A DNA stretch of 8,914 bases from Naegleria gruberi. Taxonomy: Eukaryota. Location: the NCBI GenBank assembly GCA_000004985.1, contig GG739053.1; one strand, given 5' to 3'. Both the position numbers and the translations under genes were made by a program. Of the stretch, positions 1-8,914 are shown one piece after another. Position 1 is the first letter of the stretch; each line of letters begins with the position of its first letter. Below the pieces are notes generated by a model, which had not been told where the DNA came from, did not search any database, and worked only from the letters and a program-made list of their open reading frames with translations.

Positions 1-55
1 CCAACAGCTGAAGCAGCAGCAATTCCAGAAGTGCTGATGGATGTGGATGGAGCAA
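1..55 (+). CDS. 3' part of an internal coding exon of an unidentified + strand gene. Frame 1 reads PTAEAAAIPEVLMDVDGA, and the exon ends at a GTAAGT donor at 56-61.
   Basis: Open in frame 1 from the window edge. Strong GNN codon periodicity (gct gaa gca gca gca att cca gaa gtg ctg atg gat gtg gat gga gca). A consensus donor A|GTAAGT follows immediately at 56-61. GC content is higher than in the flanking AT-rich sequence. Confidence 0.35.
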
Positions 56-785
56 GTAAGTCAATGGTTGACATGTTTTTTTTTATTTGTTGATTTTTGT
101 GTGTTGATGGATGACTGATGGCAATATTGAAAAGTTTTTACATGACAGGAGATGGAAAAAGTACATTGTTGGAGGATGAACATCTTTTGCTTGAAGTGAA
201 AGTTTGAGAATGATAAGGATTTGTGTTATCCTAAAGTGATTATTTTTTGGAATCGAATGGTGTGAAATTTCATATGGAGGAAGAACCCATTCAATTTAAA
301 CAAATAATAATTATTAATTTTGTTTTAAGTTTAAACTACTATTTTTGAATGCATCTTCAATTCTCTTCAATTCTTTGCTATGCTTCAATGGTTTGCTTCT
401 TTCATTTCTTTCAAATTTTAAACAAACATAATAAAAGTAGATTATTTCTGAATTTTGTTGAATTCTGATTGAATATGAGGAATGGACTTGTTTCCGATTG
501 TAAATTACAAAATAAAGTGAAAATATTCTGAGTTGCTTAATAAGCGATCTCAATTCCGAGTTGTTAACAATTTTCCATGCTCAAAAAATTATTCGAAATG
601 TCTGGAAATAACAAGAAAGGAACTCCACAAAGAAAACAACACACTGTATCATCCCCATCTCATCCTAAACAAAGAGTAGACCCACTACTCCCTCCCAAAA
701 ACTGTTGCGCTCATTAATCTTTGGTAAGGGATTAATTTCTTAGTGAGGTTTTTATCAATATTTCGGAAACATTGTAAAATTTTCT

Positions 786-1088
786 TTATTTCACTAACAT
801 TTCTTTCTCATATTCGCATTTATCGTTGGTCTGACGTTTTTTTCTTATCCTTAGGATAATGATATTATCTCGGGACCTGCTCAATAAAGATTTATATTCT
901 TCAAAGCAGGTTCCAGGCTGTTTCACTATTAAGGTGAACAGTCTCTGAGCTTTAATACCCATTAGTATAATTACTTGTTCTCTTGTTTTTATTAATTTGC
1001 AATGTAACATAAGCTTTATGGTGCTTTTTAATGGTTCCTGGTAATTCAGAATAGTCCAAAGGATTTTATTTTCAATTATAATAGTCAA
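786..1088 (-). CDS. Hypothetical 100-codon ORF with a TTG alternative start and no recognisable domain. It may be an exon or a spurious ORF.
   Basis: Stop-bounded ORF from the six-frame track. Its first codon is TTG, not ATG. No motif is recognisable by eye. It lies downstream of the kinase gene on the same strand. Confidence 0.15.
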   Translation of the reverse strand: MTIIIENKILWTILNYQEPLKSTIKLMLHCKLIKTREQVIILMGIKAQRLFTLIVKQPGTCFEEYKSLLSRSRDNIIILRIRKKRQTNDKCEYEKEMLVK

Positions 1089-1205
1089 GTGAGAACAAGA
1101 GGAGCACTATTCTCGATAATACGGGTACAATTAACAGGATGCAAATATCAAATGAAGCATATGTTTCCCTTCCTGCTTCTAAGAGTGAATCAAATGAATG
1201 GACAT

Positions 1206-1255
1206 NNNNNNNNNNNNNNNNNNNNNNNNNNNNNNNNNNNNNNNNNNNNNNNNNN
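1206..1255. other. Assembly gap: 50 N, a scaffold gap placeholder of unknown true size.
   Basis: Run of exactly 50 n characters. Confidence 0.97.
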
Positions 1256-1272
1256 TTAGAATTTCTAATAGA

Positions 1273-1811
1273 TTATTCATAATTTTGAGATAATGAATAC
1301 ATTCGTCCTCTGTGTGTTGAACGAGATTGGATCATTGTAATTAAACACCTTCCAAGAATATCATTGAATAGCACCTTTTCCAAAAAAGAATTAGGATGGG
1401 AGCAAATAACCTCAAGATTTGGATCTATAAACTTGTCAATTTCCTTTCTAATAGATTGATGAAGCATGGCCTCTCCTTGTGGAGTACTTAATAACTTGAA
1501 AAAGTAATTTTTACCAACTCCAAATAAACAAGATGAACCAGAATCTTCATTCGTTGATATAATACTCAATGTTCTGTTGCAGATCATTTTCATTAAGACA
1601 CATCCCATTGAGTAAGTGTCACAATTTTTTGAGATTTTGAAATTTTCCGTTTGTTTGCCTTCTTCCTCATCATAAACCTCTGGAGCAAGATATTCCCATG
1701 TCCCTATATTCACTGTTATTGAGTGGTTGGATTGAATAACTTTGGAATTGTCAAAATCAATGAGTTTGGCATGTCCTTCATTGTTGATTATTACATTTGC
1801 CAACTTTAAAT
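1273..1811 (-). CDS. Protein kinase (eukaryotic ePK, Ser/Thr-type), 3' terminal exon. Encodes the catalytic loop (H-R)DLKLANVII, DFD in place of DFG at 1750-1758, GTWEYLAPEV (subdomain VIII) and DTYSMGCV (subdomain IX), then a C-terminal tail. The TAA stop is at 1273-1275.
   Basis: The kinase subdomain motifs appear in canonical order in the minus-strand translation. The exon starts directly after the intron acceptor (..ttttgtaaag|AT TTA AAG TTG GCA AAT GTA..). The frame runs to a TAA that sits 18 nt from the 50-N gap. Confidence 0.8.
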
Positions 1812-1854
1812 CTTTACAAAATTTCAGTATTGATTTTGAAAACAATAAACATAC
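1812..1854 (-). other. 43-nt spliceosomal intron of the kinase gene, with a GTATGT donor and an AAAG acceptor. It is phase 1 and splits the Asp codon of HRD (g|at).
   Basis: The minus strand reads cac aga g|gtatgtttattgttttcaaaatcaatactgaaattttgtaaag|at tta aag ttg gca aat. Removing these 43 nt restores the canonical catalytic loop HRDLKLAN. The unspliced read-through instead gives HRGMFIVFKINTEIL* and loses the catalytic Asp. Confidence 0.8.
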
Positions 1855-2774
1855 CTCTGTGTGTGAAATTTAGATTATGCAAACTGATGACACCCTCAAG
1901 AACTTCAGTAAAGTACTGTAAAACTTCAATCAAATCTTGAGTGGATAAGCAATGCTCCAAATTTGAATAATTTTGGTGCATTTCTGACATTACATGATCC
2001 AAAGGAGATCCCATTTCCATAATTAAATAGCTATACTTGCTATTATGCAACTCATAAAAATTACATTCAAATGTTCTGACAATACCCTTCAAATTTGGTG
2101 TTTTCATAAAGTTAAATAATTTCTCAGTTCTTTCTGGTTGCTCTTCTGGAGTAATATTCACTTTTAAAACTACTATTTGTTCAAGTTGTGTGTGAAAGCA
2201 TTTGAAGACAATTCCCTGAGCTCCTTTTCCTATTTTGGATAAAGGAATCAAGTAAGGGAATTTTTGAAGTAGCATTTGGATATATCTCATGTCAAGGTCA
2301 GTACCATGTATATTGTCAATTATACTGACAAGTGAGTTAAAGGATGGGAAATCATTGGAAGAAACCCATTCTTTTATGAATCTAATAACTGTAGATCGTT
2401 TAAACACTTCCAATCTTAATTTTGATGACAGTTTCAAAACACTTTCCTTAAACGTGGAATATAAAACACTTCCACCATCTTTAACAAATTGATTCAAGTA
2501 ATTGGAAAGGAAACATAACTCATTCTCCCCTATTGGAATCTCTTGATCAAATCTCACATAATCAATTACCCAATTATTCTTAATCAAAGAACTAATTCTC
2601 TGAAGAAATGCATAGACAACTACCAATGATTCATCATAGCGTTTGTTAATTAAGAATCTTCCTCCTTCAAATGTTATCTGCAATCGATTAATGTATCTAT
2701 TGAAAACTTTATCCAAATCAGAGGCATATTTCAATGTTGTTTCGTCAATAATCTTATCGATATCGTATATCCAC
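1855..2774 (-). CDS. Protein kinase, upstream exon. It holds an unrecognised N-terminal region of about 170 aa, then the Gly-rich loop IGKGAQGIV (about 2213-2233), the VAIK-type lysine in VVLKV (K at 2162-2164), alphaC Glu (TEKLFNFM), the hinge YLIMEMG, and the start of the catalytic loop LHNLNFTH-R. It is 5'-partial. The frame is open up to 2803 and the gene continues into the large gap.
   Basis: 920-nt continuous minus-strand frame with kinase subdomains I-VIa in order. The ORF track's 'M' at 2732-2734 is TTG, not ATG. The frame stays open upstream to a TGA at 2804-2806. A possible 40-nt intron lies at 2775-2814 (GTAAGT donor, weak AAAAG acceptor), so the 5' boundary is uncertain. Confidence 0.8.
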
Positions 2775-2814
2775 CTTTTACAGGTAAGAAAAATAGAAAT
2801 TCTTCAAAACTTAC
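2775..2814 (-). other. Candidate 40-nt intron of the kinase gene: a GTAAGT donor on the minus strand next to the gap and a weak acceptor ctgtaaaag.
   Basis: The minus strand reads catatat|gtaagttttgaagaatttctatttttcttacctgtaaaag|gtggatatac. The donor is a perfect consensus. The acceptor is weak and 40 nt is at the lower limit for an intron. Confidence 0.25.
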
Positions 2815-2821
2815 ATATATG

Positions 2822-5800
2822 NNNNNNNNNNNNNNNNNNNNNNNNNNNNNNNNNNNNNNNNNNNNNNNNNNNNNNNNNNNNNNNNNNNNNNNNNNNNNNN
2901 NNNNNNNNNNNNNNNNNNNNNNNNNNNNNNNNNNNNNNNNNNNNNNNNNNNNNNNNNNNNNNNNNNNNNNNNNNNNNNNNNNNNNNNNNNNNNNNNNNNN
3001 NNNNNNNNNNNNNNNNNNNNNNNNNNNNNNNNNNNNNNNNNNNNNNNNNNNNNNNNNNNNNNNNNNNNNNNNNNNNNNNNNNNNNNNNNNNNNNNNNNNN
3101 NNNNNNNNNNNNNNNNNNNNNNNNNNNNNNNNNNNNNNNNNNNNNNNNNNNNNNNNNNNNNNNNNNNNNNNNNNNNNNNNNNNNNNNNNNNNNNNNNNNN
3201 NNNNNNNNNNNNNNNNNNNNNNNNNNNNNNNNNNNNNNNNNNNNNNNNNNNNNNNNNNNNNNNNNNNNNNNNNNNNNNNNNNNNNNNNNNNNNNNNNNNN
3301 NNNNNNNNNNNNNNNNNNNNNNNNNNNNNNNNNNNNNNNNNNNNNNNNNNNNNNNNNNNNNNNNNNNNNNNNNNNNNNNNNNNNNNNNNNNNNNNNNNNN
3401 NNNNNNNNNNNNNNNNNNNNNNNNNNNNNNNNNNNNNNNNNNNNNNNNNNNNNNNNNNNNNNNNNNNNNNNNNNNNNNNNNNNNNNNNNNNNNNNNNNNN
3501 NNNNNNNNNNNNNNNNNNNNNNNNNNNNNNNNNNNNNNNNNNNNNNNNNNNNNNNNNNNNNNNNNNNNNNNNNNNNNNNNNNNNNNNNNNNNNNNNNNNN
3601 NNNNNNNNNNNNNNNNNNNNNNNNNNNNNNNNNNNNNNNNNNNNNNNNNNNNNNNNNNNNNNNNNNNNNNNNNNNNNNNNNNNNNNNNNNNNNNNNNNNN
3701 NNNNNNNNNNNNNNNNNNNNNNNNNNNNNNNNNNNNNNNNNNNNNNNNNNNNNNNNNNNNNNNNNNNNNNNNNNNNNNNNNNNNNNNNNNNNNNNNNNNN
3801 NNNNNNNNNNNNNNNNNNNNNNNNNNNNNNNNNNNNNNNNNNNNNNNNNNNNNNNNNNNNNNNNNNNNNNNNNNNNNNNNNNNNNNNNNNNNNNNNNNNN
3901 NNNNNNNNNNNNNNNNNNNNNNNNNNNNNNNNNNNNNNNNNNNNNNNNNNNNNNNNNNNNNNNNNNNNNNNNNNNNNNNNNNNNNNNNNNNNNNNNNNNN
4001 NNNNNNNNNNNNNNNNNNNNNNNNNNNNNNNNNNNNNNNNNNNNNNNNNNNNNNNNNNNNNNNNNNNNNNNNNNNNNNNNNNNNNNNNNNNNNNNNNNNN
4101 NNNNNNNNNNNNNNNNNNNNNNNNNNNNNNNNNNNNNNNNNNNNNNNNNNNNNNNNNNNNNNNNNNNNNNNNNNNNNNNNNNNNNNNNNNNNNNNNNNNN
4201 NNNNNNNNNNNNNNNNNNNNNNNNNNNNNNNNNNNNNNNNNNNNNNNNNNNNNNNNNNNNNNNNNNNNNNNNNNNNNNNNNNNNNNNNNNNNNNNNNNNN
4301 NNNNNNNNNNNNNNNNNNNNNNNNNNNNNNNNNNNNNNNNNNNNNNNNNNNNNNNNNNNNNNNNNNNNNNNNNNNNNNNNNNNNNNNNNNNNNNNNNNNN
4401 NNNNNNNNNNNNNNNNNNNNNNNNNNNNNNNNNNNNNNNNNNNNNNNNNNNNNNNNNNNNNNNNNNNNNNNNNNNNNNNNNNNNNNNNNNNNNNNNNNNN
4501 NNNNNNNNNNNNNNNNNNNNNNNNNNNNNNNNNNNNNNNNNNNNNNNNNNNNNNNNNNNNNNNNNNNNNNNNNNNNNNNNNNNNNNNNNNNNNNNNNNNN
4601 NNNNNNNNNNNNNNNNNNNNNNNNNNNNNNNNNNNNNNNNNNNNNNNNNNNNNNNNNNNNNNNNNNNNNNNNNNNNNNNNNNNNNNNNNNNNNNNNNNNN
4701 NNNNNNNNNNNNNNNNNNNNNNNNNNNNNNNNNNNNNNNNNNNNNNNNNNNNNNNNNNNNNNNNNNNNNNNNNNNNNNNNNNNNNNNNNNNNNNNNNNNN
4801 NNNNNNNNNNNNNNNNNNNNNNNNNNNNNNNNNNNNNNNNNNNNNNNNNNNNNNNNNNNNNNNNNNNNNNNNNNNNNNNNNNNNNNNNNNNNNNNNNNNN
4901 NNNNNNNNNNNNNNNNNNNNNNNNNNNNNNNNNNNNNNNNNNNNNNNNNNNNNNNNNNNNNNNNNNNNNNNNNNNNNNNNNNNNNNNNNNNNNNNNNNNN
5001 NNNNNNNNNNNNNNNNNNNNNNNNNNNNNNNNNNNNNNNNNNNNNNNNNNNNNNNNNNNNNNNNNNNNNNNNNNNNNNNNNNNNNNNNNNNNNNNNNNNN
5101 NNNNNNNNNNNNNNNNNNNNNNNNNNNNNNNNNNNNNNNNNNNNNNNNNNNNNNNNNNNNNNNNNNNNNNNNNNNNNNNNNNNNNNNNNNNNNNNNNNNN
5201 NNNNNNNNNNNNNNNNNNNNNNNNNNNNNNNNNNNNNNNNNNNNNNNNNNNNNNNNNNNNNNNNNNNNNNNNNNNNNNNNNNNNNNNNNNNNNNNNNNNN
5301 NNNNNNNNNNNNNNNNNNNNNNNNNNNNNNNNNNNNNNNNNNNNNNNNNNNNNNNNNNNNNNNNNNNNNNNNNNNNNNNNNNNNNNNNNNNNNNNNNNNN
5401 NNNNNNNNNNNNNNNNNNNNNNNNNNNNNNNNNNNNNNNNNNNNNNNNNNNNNNNNNNNNNNNNNNNNNNNNNNNNNNNNNNNNNNNNNNNNNNNNNNNN
5501 NNNNNNNNNNNNNNNNNNNNNNNNNNNNNNNNNNNNNNNNNNNNNNNNNNNNNNNNNNNNNNNNNNNNNNNNNNNNNNNNNNNNNNNNNNNNNNNNNNNN
5601 NNNNNNNNNNNNNNNNNNNNNNNNNNNNNNNNNNNNNNNNNNNNNNNNNNNNNNNNNNNNNNNNNNNNNNNNNNNNNNNNNNNNNNNNNNNNNNNNNNNN
5701 NNNNNNNNNNNNNNNNNNNNNNNNNNNNNNNNNNNNNNNNNNNNNNNNNNNNNNNNNNNNNNNNNNNNNNNNNNNNNNNNNNNNNNNNNNNNNNNNNNNN

Positions 5801-6591
5801 NNNNNNNNNNNNNNNNNNNNNNNNNNNNNNNNNNNNNNNNNNNNNNNNNNNNNNNNNNNNNNNNNNNNNNNNNNNNNNNNNNNNNNNNNNNNNNNNNNNN
5901 NNNNNNNNNNNNNNNNNNNNNNNNNNNNNNNNNNNNNNNNNNNNNNNNNNNNNNNNNNNNNNNNNNNNNNNNNNNNNNNNNNNNNNNNNNNNNNNNNNNN
6001 NNNNNNNNNNNNNNNNNNNNNNNNNNNNNNNNNNNNNNNNNNNNNNNNNNNNNNNNNNNNNNNNNNNNNNNNNNNNNNNNNNNNNNNNNNNNNNNNNNNN
6101 NNNNNNNNNNNNNNNNNNNNNNNNNNNNNNNNNNNNNNNNNNNNNNNNNNNNNNNNNNNNNNNNNNNNNNNNNNNNNNNNNNNNNNNNNNNNNNNNNNNN
6201 NNNNNNNNNNNNNNNNNNNNNNNNNNNNNNNNNNNNNNNNNNNNNNNNNNNNNNNNNNNNNNNNNNNNNNNNNNNNNNNNNNNNNNNNNNNNNNNNNNNN
6301 NNNNNNNNNNNNNNNNNNNNNNNNNNNNNNNNNNNNNNNNNNNNNNNNNNNNNNNNNNNNNNNNNNNNNNNNNNNNNNNNNNNNNNNNNNNNNNNNNNNN
6401 NNNNNNNNNNNNNNNNNNNNNNNNNNNNNNNNNNNNNNNNNNNNNNNNNNNNNNNNNNNNNNNNNNNNNNNNNNNNNNNNNNNNNNNNNNNNNNNNNNNN
6501 NNNNNNNNNNNNNNNNNNNNNNNNNNNNNNNNNNNNNNNNNNNNNNNNNNNNNNNNNNNNNNNNNNNNNNNNNNNNNNNNNNNNNNNNNNN
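2822..6591. other. Assembly gap of 3770 N.
   Basis: Uninterrupted n run. Both flanks carry truncated coding sequence: the 5' part of the kinase gene on the minus strand to the left, and a + strand terminal exon to the right. Confidence 0.98.
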
Positions 6592-6593
6592 TT

Positions 6594-6659
6594 GAATCTT
6601 GGGTTGTTGGTGGTGTTGATGTTGGTTTCTCTGATGAAGGTTCTTCTTACATTTTTTAA
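6594..6659 (+). CDS. Last 21 codons plus TAA stop of an unidentified + strand gene whose body lies in the gap (…ESWVVGGVDVGFSDEGSSYIF*).
   Basis: Strong GNN periodicity (gtt gtt ggt ggt gtt gat gtt ggt ttc tct gat gaa ggt). TAA at 6657-6659. A canonical AATAAA follows 12 nt downstream. Confidence 0.4.
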   Translation, partial: ESWVVGGVDVGFSDEGSSYIF

Positions 6660-6670
6660 TATTTAAAATT

Positions 6671-6676: not shown

Positions 6677-7038
6677 AAATGTATTAAACTTCTCCTTCAT
6701 CAAACGGGAGAAGAAATCAGCAACCATTAGAACCCGATTCATGTCCAATTCTTGCAACAACAATATTGATATCGGATCACATATTTCAAGATCAACGACG
6801 AATGAACTTTTACTACTAGATTCATAGAAAACAACCTAAGATTCAAGAACAATAATTTATTATTTTAATAAAATACTTTTGTGTTTTCACAAATATTTGT
6901 GCAAGATAAAATGGTCTGTCTACACAAACACAAACACAAATTTGTGAAAATATTTTAGCACAATTTAGCACAAATAGACTTCCGGAAAAAGTTTTGCTAA
7001 AAGTCGACTTTTTTAAGGTACTTTCACGCTAATTTGCA

Positions 7039-7071
7039 AAAAGGCGCCTAAAAGGTGCCTAAAAGGTGCCT
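7039..7071 (+). repeat. Three tandem copies of the 11-bp unit aaaaggYgcct inside the left arm of the element.
   Basis: aaaaggcgcct aaaaggtgcct aaaaggtgcct, followed by ttttt. Confidence 0.7.
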
Positions 7072-7292
7072 TTTTTACCTAAAAACTACTTGAAACACAT
7101 CCAAAGTTTGTTCAAGAAAATCTTGAGCAACTTTCAAACTGTTTTCAAACAATTCCTCAAGAATGATTAATTATTTCTCAACCAAATTCTCAAAACGCTC
7201 AAGTATTTGCTGAAAAAACCCCAAGGGCCTTCAAACTTCTGAACTCACTCTCTTTCTTAACTATATCCTTTTCCAAAAAATCCACCAATTCC

Positions 7293-7697
7293 TTAAGAGA
7301 TCCAAGGTTTTTGAATGTCACCATCTCGGGTCACTGTAGTTTTGATGGATTTTTTTACATCAATCACGAAATCTTTCGAAAGCTCTGGTCTTTTGAGCTC
7401 CTCAATTTTTCTTGGCATGATGATTGTTTTCTTTTTGATAAGGTTCAGGTTTTTTCTCTTTATGGGTGGAGTGATGTTCAAATCAGATCTCTTCCTCTTC
7501 TGGATTTTTAATTGTTTCACACTTTTTTCTTGTTCCTGTTTCAAGCTTAATTCAGAATATGGTGTTTCTTTAAGATTTTCTTCCACTTCCTCAACATCTT
7601 CCGTTCCATCAACAATAGAATCAGCAAGATTAGGGAACCTTTCAACTTCAGCAAATGCAGTAAAGAAAAGGTTGACATCAGGAAAAAGAAAGCTTCA
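7293..7697 (-). CDS. Lys/Glu-rich low-complexity ORF open stop to stop (…DVEEVEENLKETPYSELSLKQEQEKSVKQLKIQKRKRSDLNITPPIKRKNLNLIKKK…). It may be an exon or an element-encoded peptide. It has no ATG at its 5' end, and the track's 'M' is GTG.
   Basis: About 134 codons without a stop in AT-rich DNA. It carries basic KRKR and KKK runs resembling a nuclear localisation signal. The overlapping + strand ORFs are poly-Phe/Leu, as expected for the antisense of K/E codons. No domain is recognisable. Confidence 0.25.
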
Positions 7698-8006
7698 ATA
7701 AATGTGCAGGAAAGGTTTAAACATTTCTTGAATTATGCTCAAACAAATTTCAAAAATTGCTCAAACATTTTTCAAACCACTTTTTTAAAAAGGCGCCTTT
7801 TTATTTCTTTTTGACTTTTCCGGAAGTCTAATATTCACAAAAAATTTGTGTAATTAATTTTTTATTTGTGAATAGTGATAAAATGCTCTCATTGTGGAAA
7901 TTAATTTTTAGTAATGTACTTCACCAATGTCTTTTAGTACTATTTAAATAGATAATAAACATCCTATTTATTATCAGATTTTCGTCCTGTTGTCAATTTA
8001 CGGAAG

Positions 8007-8643: not shown

Positions 8644-8914
8644 ATGTCGCAACTTGATGTCAGCTCACATAATGCAAGAGATTCGTCTATTCCACTCCGT
8701 GCTACTACTTCTACCCTTCTAAAACAATCAACACTCGAGCAATCGTGTGAGAAAGTAAACGAAAGTTCATTAATCATTGAAACATTTCCTTCCCAACATT
8801 CTATTGGAAATCAAACACGAAAGGTTCATTCTCCACGTTCAGATCAAACTCTTTCCGAAGAAGAAACAAATTCCATCATTTGGAAAGAAAGAAATGACGA
8901 AATGTTCGAACAAA
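8644..8914 (+). CDS. 5' part of a + strand gene, 90 codons open to the window end (MSQLDVSSHNARDSSIPLRATTSTLLKQSTLEQSCEKVNESSLIIETFPSQHSIGNQTRKVHSPRSDQTLSEEETNSIIWKERNDEMFEQ…). It encodes a Ser/Thr-rich protein of unknown function.
   Basis: ATG in a nematode-type context (gttaaaaaATGtcg). The frame has no stop for the remaining 271 nt. It is absent from the ORF track only because no in-frame stop occurs before the window end. Codon usage is not AT-biased like the flanks. Confidence 0.4.
   Translation, partial: MSQLDVSSHNARDSSIPLRATTSTLLKQSTLEQSCEKVNESSLIIETFPSQHSIGNQTRKVHSPRSDQTLSEEETNSIIWKERNDEMFEQ

Follow-up and report, generated by a model that had tools for sequence, protein, structure and literature searches.

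What gene encodes a protein kinase whose magnesium-binding motif reads DFD instead of DFG, and how much of that gene is present at a locus that runs into assembly gaps at both ends? The question is posed by an 8,914-nucleotide (nt) stretch of the Naegleria gruberi genome (contig GG739053.1 of assembly GCA_000004985.1, AT-rich at ~31% GC and referred to here as the window), in which an earlier note, made from the sequence alone, had pointed to a divergent kinase between positions 1273 and 2814. The window contains the middle part of a large N. gruberi protein kinase gene, real and fairly ordinary, which has been badly broken up by assembly gaps. We consider it probable that this part forms the centre of a single minus-strand gene of ~1580 amino acids (aa) that belongs to a DUF4116-linker-DFD kinase family and encodes an active kinase. 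Such a protein would carry, in order, an orphan N-terminus of ~700 aa, four DUF4116 repeats of the alpha-solenoid type, a spacer, a helical linker of ~170 aa, the kinase domain, and a helical tail of ~95 aa.

A kinase gene split by two assembly gaps

The spliced window protein is 100% identical to a 319-aa N. gruberi "predicted protein" (P0001; EFC35721.1, NAEGRDRAFT_76621), a model that begins at an internal Met (MLLQKF...) and thereby leaves out the linker. A 2849-nt environmental contig, L001, is 99.4% identical to window positions 2821..1256, with 8 substitutions and 2 insertions or deletions (indels). Only the linker and the kinase domain lie in the window, on the minus strand, the remaining parts of the gene falling inside the two gaps. 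From the 5′ to the 3′ end of the gene, the layout is as follows:

2822..6591, minus strand: assembly gap of 3770 N, concealing ~1008 upstream codons (orphan N-terminal region, four DUF4116 repeats and spacer)
2815..2821, minus strand: last 7 nt of the upstream exon (CATATAT), adjoining the large gap and the same as L001 1155-1161
2775..2814, minus strand: intron A, 40 nt, GTAAGT...GTAAAAG, phase 2
2258..2773, minus strand: family-specific linker of ~172 aa, predicted to be all-helical
1855..2257, minus strand: kinase N-lobe, up to the His-Arg and the first base of the Asp codon of the HRD motif
1812..1854, minus strand: intron B, 43 nt (GTATGT...GTAAAG), phase 1, interrupting the codon for the HRD Asp
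1256..1811, minus strand: kinase C-lobe exon, continuing into the 50-N gap
1375..1410, minus strand: uncertain in-frame 36-nt GT..AG segment inside the 14-residue insertion
1366-1407, minus strand: 14-residue insertion ICSHPNSFLEKVLF, found in this gene only and lacking in the other family sequences that span the alignment point
1305, minus strand: extra base (G on the plus strand), a frameshift that yields an apparent TAA at 1273-1275
1206..1255, minus strand: placeholder gap of 50 N, concealing at least 76 last codons and the true stop

The catalytic core of the kinase is recovered by removing intron B, as the earlier note had proposed. Two long minus-strand open reading frames (ORFs), 1814-2734 and 1273-1845, lie in different frames, and joining 1855-2774 to 1273-1811 gives a single frame of 485 codons; by our own estimate, a 306-codon open frame would arise by chance in DNA of 31% GC with a probability of ~1e-11. 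The splice, which interrupts the Asp codon behind its first base and is thus of phase 1 as had been claimed, restores FTHRDLKLAN, a sequence that aligns gap-free to the relatives P0003, P0004 and P0005, and the same intron has already been spliced out in the public model P0001. Retention of 1812-1854 instead gives the predicted read-through peptide HRGMFIVFKINTEIL, with a stop after 13 codons. A seemingly intron-retained protein ending in HRGMFIVFKINIEIL (P0002) was considered as evidence of read-through and ruled out, being an ORF call on a metagenome contig.

Intron B was also found in L001, with one substitution. It has no counterpart in P0003 (contig L004), P0004 (L003) or P0005 (L002), nor in a gene on a further contig, L005, whose short GTAAGT...AG introns lie at other sites, including one of 46 nt within the GT.TY/.PE segment. 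Shared by the window and L001 and missing from these four relatives, the intron marks only very close copies of the gene, and its suggested use as a broad orthology marker had to be given up. A third mini-intron could be present in the form of the in-frame segment at 1375-1410, a candidate on the strength of its boundaries (GTTATT...GGAAAAG). This segment is kept in the public models; AlphaFold renders it as a β-hairpin with a block-mean predicted local distance difference test (pLDDT) score of 79-93, and L001 shows a Phe-to-Tyr change within it.

At the 5′ end, position 2774, where the ORF starts, is an exon boundary, from which the 40-nt intron A leads to an exon encoding DUF4116 repeats. 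Its removal gives ...GKYTYMWIYDIDK..., gap-free against the intron-less relatives P0004 and P0005, with the junction reading ...AAA TAC ACA TAT AT|G (KYTYM|W) and GKYTYM joined to WIYDIDK.... Of the two indels that separate the window from L001, one lies within this intron (40 versus 41 nt). The expectation that the 5′ end of the gene had been lost in the 3770-N gap was borne out by L001, in whose upstream exon at least 387 codons stay open and encode four DUF4116 repeats (PF13475, E=5e-38, compared with 3e-37 in the public models P0021/P0027). One of these, P0021 (NAEGRDRAFT_77043, on a 1525-nt scaffold), stops at ...KYTYM by reading into the TAA of intron A. The other, P0027 (NAEGRDRAFT_74392, 953 aa), overlaps the L001 exon with 321/323 identical residues and adds 626 further residues at its N-terminus.

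The four models NAEGRDRAFT_74392, 77043, 76621 and 74391 together with L001 tile 1580 aa, with overlaps of 321/323, 330/334, 487/492, 152/153 and 110/110 identical residues. This tiling into one protein is based on protein overlaps; the first and last models, P0027 and P0194 (NAEGRDRAFT_74391), come from the same 236-kb scaffold, their accessions and locus tags following directly on each other, and the ~3.0 kb of upstream coding sequence finds room enough in the 3.77-kb gap. The N-terminal region of P0027 gave no Pfam match, a word-indexed search with its first 713 residues returned only P0027 itself, and no similarity was detected to the CNH/Vps39 extension of the family member P0098. The frame of L001 is open for 38 codons from the contig start before the first possible exon-start Met, which lends some support to an attached N-terminal region. 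On the far side of the large gap, open frames at 6592-6660 on the minus strand (e.g., ...RRTFIRETNINTTNNPRF) enter it without matching the start of P0027 and could represent either another 5′ exon or upstream sequence.

At the 3′ end, the in-frame TAA at 1273-1275 is real in the window, but it is not the true coding end of the gene, owing to the extra base 1305. With this base kept, the protein reads ...STHRG RMYSLSQNYE and stops; with it removed, ...STHRG ECIHYLKIMNNLLEIL... stays open into the 50-N gap. The C-terminus RMYSLSQNYE given by the earlier note is thus the product of a 1-nt frameshift. In L001, which lacks base 1305, in NAEGRDRAFT_74391 and in the paralogues, the protein goes on as ECIHYLKIM... 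and then into a helical tail. P0194 (EFC37945.1) is 110/110 identical to the frame-corrected window and ends ...TCKKVLQ, and the corrected sequence fits the paralogues, which show R..C..Y..IL ahead of a tail that is helical and in part coiled-coil. Past the window, L001 and P0194 read ...EILKEPTKHFTHVDLL...RFENQSMRAQLLRYEQTLREICNISRTTDSSHMAESLDNIYQTCKKVLQ, a continuation that was not found in window positions 1-1205. The tail may form a coiled coil and mediate oligomerisation.

The small gap begins only 50 nt away from base 1305, which makes a sequencing error the likeliest origin. It is most likely an error near a contig end, or else marks a frameshifted allele, a candidate because Naegleria has been described as a heterozygous diploid. 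In the latter case, the window copy would be a non-functional allele or pseudogene fragment, truncated after the subdomain XI Arg by a real frameshift and deprived of its helical tail. We regard this as unlikely. The extra base does stand in the deposited sequence, small redundant scaffolds could be second haplotypes of a heterozygous diploid, and the comparison with L001 over 492 codons (5 non-synonymous and 2 synonymous changes, with a rough ratio of non-synonymous to synonymous rates, dN/dS, of ~0.6) does not make strong constraint evident. However, this one base aside, the window is identical over all 110 residues to the unshifted protein on the main scaffold, no further stop or frameshift occurs in the 492 codons, the independent environmental copy L001 is intact, and read quality is, by our inference, usually poor so close to a contig edge. 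Read as an intact gene, the locus shows that the NAEGRDRAFT_76621 model for this scaffold begins at a false start and ends at a false stop.

The kinase domain and its acidic DFG position

That the locus encodes a divergent eukaryotic protein kinase is supported by the Pfam Pkinase profile (PF00069), which matches with E=1.3e-34 and 120 bits (cut-off 31.7). Modelled with AlphaFold, the kinase domain shows canonical secondary structure (pLDDT 81.2, predicted template modelling (pTM) score 0.82), and the top Foldseek matches of this model are all protein kinases (CDK2, ERK2, Pho85 and MYT1; E~1e-14, template modelling (TM) score ~0.6). All the motifs listed in the earlier note were found where it had placed them on the minus strand, and the kinase landmarks of the window are as follows:

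2213-2230, minus strand: G-loop GKGAQG
2159-2173, minus strand: β3 Lys in VVLKV
2102-2137, minus strand: αC region PERTEKLFNFMK
1795-1861, minus strand: HRDLKLAN, across the intron
1750-1758, minus strand: DFD, residues 326-328
1711-1722, minus strand: activation-loop S-I-T
1678-1704, minus strand: GTWEYLAPE, with APE at residues 350-352
1600-1668, minus strand: acidic insert and subdomain IX
1306-1359, minus strand: subdomain XI ILGRCLITMIQ...R

The third position of the DFG motif is Asp and not Gly, as the earlier note had read it. Its further claim that all catalytic residues are present holds for the G-loop, the β3 Lys, the HRD Asp, the catalytic-loop Asn and the first Asp of DFD, but not with confidence for the αC Glu. 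A Glu does lie inside the predicted αC helix PERTEKLFNFMK, where HMMER alignments to TTK and CDK fall one or two residues out of register. The subdomain XI motif TMIQ...R..C, which in the window reads ITMIQSRSTHRGEC, becomes visible together with the tail only when base 1305 is removed.

Among the relatives of this kinase, the DFD motif is conserved in a broader form, the third position being acidic in 13/15 kinase domains of the family. Seven domains have DFD, four DLD and two DFE; the other two are degenerate, and Gly occurs at this position in none. In a 12-sequence alignment of the family (A6), no variation is seen in the β3 Lys, HRD, catalytic-loop Asn or Pro-Glu, and at least 90% of the sequences have the first Asp of the DFG position, at an overall identity of only 29-54%, a retention that argues for catalytic function. 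The activation-loop motif S-[I/V]-T is likewise conserved, being SIT in the window. After the kinase DFG triplet, a hydrophobic residue is usual; in this family, the corresponding residue is mostly polar (N, S, Q or T).

From these features, the protein most likely acts as an RD-type Ser/Thr kinase under the control of phosphorylation. An alternative would be a pseudokinase scaffold that binds partners without phosphotransfer, having lost the DFG glycine and possibly the canonical αC Glu. In its favour are the ambiguous register of this Glu, the HRDLD found in place of HRDLK in one subgroup, and the existence of degenerate members such as domain 1 of P0097 (NFN) and domain 1 of P0095 (YRD, lacking a DFG equivalent). 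Nevertheless, the pseudokinase reading appears distinctly unlikely, since a pseudokinase would be marked by the loss of at least one residue among β3 Lys, HRD Asp and DFG Asp, and the window protein retains all three. G-loop, β3 Lys, HRD Asp, Asn and Mg-binding Asp are moreover conserved family-wide despite the low identity, and DFD kinases such as MNK1/2 and the plant AGC VIIIa kinases are active.

In an active kinase of this type, phosphorylation of the Ser/Thr in the activation loop would act as the switch. The acidic residue in place of the DFG glycine may, as in MNK1/2, favour an autoinhibited "out" state of the motif, from which it would have to be released for activity. MNK1/2 are active Ser/Thr kinases with a DFD motif; their "out" conformation prevents ATP from binding, whereas both states are sampled by the D228G mutant. 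Targeting or partner binding would fall to the DUF4116 and N-terminal regions.

A Naegleria family with DUF4116 repeats and a private linker

The family was delineated by searching a profile of the linker plus kinase (alignment A4) against 1.84 billion cluster representatives. About 12 clusters matched both parts at 248 bits or more, lower ranks being generic, often multi-kinase proteins matched over the kinase part only; matches over the full profile (positions ~2-60 to 455-460) were confined to the family. All named members are from Naegleria, comprising six N. gruberi paralogues and three from N. lovaniensis, and the others come from metagenome or read-archive assemblies of ~32% GC. The usual architecture consists of DUF4116 repeats (present in most paralogues), linker, kinase and coiled coil. 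P0098 carries additional CNH and Vps39_1 domains, and P0095 and P0097 have two kinase domains each.

The ~170 residues upstream of the G-loop had matched nothing recognisable in the earlier note, and the first 180 residues indeed gave no Pfam match even at E<=1. This region aligns over ~170 residues in all 10 family members, and in the search described above its profile positions were covered by family members only. AlphaFold, given 10 sequences, returned an all-helical model of low confidence (pLDDT 48.9). The sequence TLKYASDLDK at the ORF start prompted the idea that the linker consists of degenerate DUF4116 repeats, which was discarded after hhalign against 27 repeat units gave a probability of 0.2% (E=0.25) and Pfam no match. 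On sequence and model grounds, what had been called an unrecognised N-terminal domain is a predicted helical linker specific to this family.

The nine named Naegleria relatives (NAEGRDRAFT_59622, 74877, 74558, 79712, EFC41087 and EFC46766; C9374_010472, C9374_005323 and C9374_005304) share with the window gene the architecture, the TMIQ...R..C motif, a helical or coiled-coil tail, the acidic third DFG position, S-[I/V]-T and the insert after APE. However, their kinase domains are only 29-41% identical to that of the window, whose gene differs by an orphan N-terminus of far greater length, by ~140 aa of additional spacer behind the repeats and by the unique 14-aa insertion. Intron positions, too, are not the same in these relatives. 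The N. gruberi subgroup P0097-P0102 has HRDLD(P)xN, with the catalytic-loop Lys changed to Asp, in contrast to the HRDLK of the window. Domain 1 of P0097 and domain 1 of P0095 look like degenerate pseudokinase domains, each in tandem with an intact one. The gene on L005 (positions 1088-3516, from JGI metagenome 3300022665) is another member, with DUF4116, linker, a kinase with DLD, and coiled coil. ORF calling had split it into three at its short introns, and once its 46-nt GTAAGT...AATTAG intron is removed, the P+1 loop reads YLPPE, as in TTK.

Could the family nonetheless belong to, or derive directly from, a named kinase family? The earlier note could not place the window kinase from its motifs; this stands insofar as TTK/MPS1 is only weakly favoured and the structure search is generic, but the DFD motif itself can be placed, as the trait of a small family with precedents elsewhere. 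The dual-specificity kinase TTK/MPS1 was the best solved-structure match to the family profile (E=2e-23, 86 bits versus 79 for the next family) and the top match for the sequence P0100 alone (44.4 versus 43.9 bits). It has in common with the family the pattern KLIDF-x-...-Q after the Mg-binding Asp and a P+1/subdomain IX insert ending KIS-x-x-x-D. TTK itself, however, has DFG and HSD and possesses neither the linker nor DUF4116 repeats. It was not among the 60 best-scoring solved sequences listed for the window alone, nor among the first 50 Foldseek matches listed. Assignment by structure was set aside, as the Foldseek neighbours (CDK2, ERK2, MYT1; TM ~0.6) are generic and did not discriminate. 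TTK/MPS1 is probably not an orthologue; we class the gene in a lineage-specific eukaryotic protein kinase family, with TTK as a weak nearest neighbour.

The two other candidates are suggested by the DFD motif that they share with the window kinase. MNK1/MNK2, the MAPK-interacting kinases of the CAMK group, differ in their flanking domains, and the window activation loop NSKVIQSNHSITVNIGT contains no Ser/Thr-Pro sites of the MNK kind; no MNK chain was present among the 60 best-scoring solved sequences listed in each of three sequence searches (window, family profile and P0100). The plant AGC VIIIa kinases (PINOID, phototropins, PKV) carry a T-loop insertion of 50-80 aa and a C-terminal FxxF PIF motif, whereas the window kinase has just 21 residues from DFD to APE and a reconstructed tail without FxxF. 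Since the other hallmarks of both groups are missing from the window gene, its DFD appears convergent, and judging from these sequence comparisons the motif evidently had an independent origin in Naegleria. With a TTK margin of only a few bits, membership in or direct descent from any of these named families is very improbable.

A more far-reaching proposal, which we put forward tentatively as possible, is that the Naegleria family represents a third independent origin of kinases with an acidic residue for the DFG glycine, one in which Asp or Glu became fixed across paralogues of ~30-40% identity, with HRDLD in one subgroup, and always in combination with DUF4116 and a private linker. According to one proposal, the glycine of DFG evolved to permit regulatory conformational switching, and the family, as an independent example of kinases without it, could be compared with MNK1/2 and plant AGC VIII kinases to test this idea. 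Should the acidic residue enforce an MNK-like autoinhibition that is released by the linker or repeats, the family would use a mode of regulation that has not been described and would offer a natural experiment on the role of the DFG glycine.

Several points weigh against the view of the locus as the centre of one large gene for an active kinase. The register of the αC Glu disagrees by one or two residues between alignments; the differences between the window and L001 are too few to prove constraint; and the window copy does carry the frameshift and could be a defective allele. The N-terminal 626 residues come from the single model P0027, have no homologue and could be mis-fused. Splicing, the single transcript and enzymatic activity are all inferred, and autoinhibition is possible solely by analogy with an unrelated DFD kinase.

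If the large-gene reading is correct, the four "predicted protein" entries NAEGRDRAFT_74392, 77043, 76621 and 74391 appear to represent fragments of a single gene with ~1580 codons, and their correction would improve the Naegleria kinase catalogue, which lists 265 predicted kinases. A literature search found no description of the Naegleria kinase family or of a link between DUF4116 and kinases, so that the DUF4116-linker-kinase family is apparently undescribed. DUF4116, a widespread repeat of unknown function that has been modelled as an alpha-solenoid, gains in this way a recurrent catalytic partner. Protists commonly possess kinase families that are lineage-specific and carry variant motifs, and the Naegleria kinase gene does not overturn current understanding.

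The pairing of DUF4116 with kinase domains also recurs beyond the Naegleria family, in the metagenome-derived protist proteins P0019 and P0062. These share with it the presence of both elements, but they have the order kinase-DUF4116 (9-10 repeats)-kinase, a canonical GDFG, HGD/HAD loops and no linker, and represent a different lineage.

Other elements in the window

No tRNA or Rfam match was found anywhere across the window. The remaining features outside the kinase gene are:

1-208, plus strand: apparent 3′ end of another gene, with an exon to ~55, a putative 93-nt GTAAGT...GACAG intron at 56-148, then GDGKSTLLEDEHLLLEVKV and a stop; no significant Pfam match
8644-8914, plus strand: ORF beginning MSQLDVSSHNARD..., 90 codons, passing the window end; no Pfam match
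7293-7586, minus strand: Lys-rich ORF of 97 aa within the element at 6975-7830; no Pfam match
6975-7830: element of ~860 bp, bounded by a perfect 15-nt inverted repeat, TAGACTTCCGGAAAA / TTTTCCGGAAGTCTA

Similar copies of AAAAAGGCGCCT flank the element at 6975-7830, which may be a small transposon-like element.

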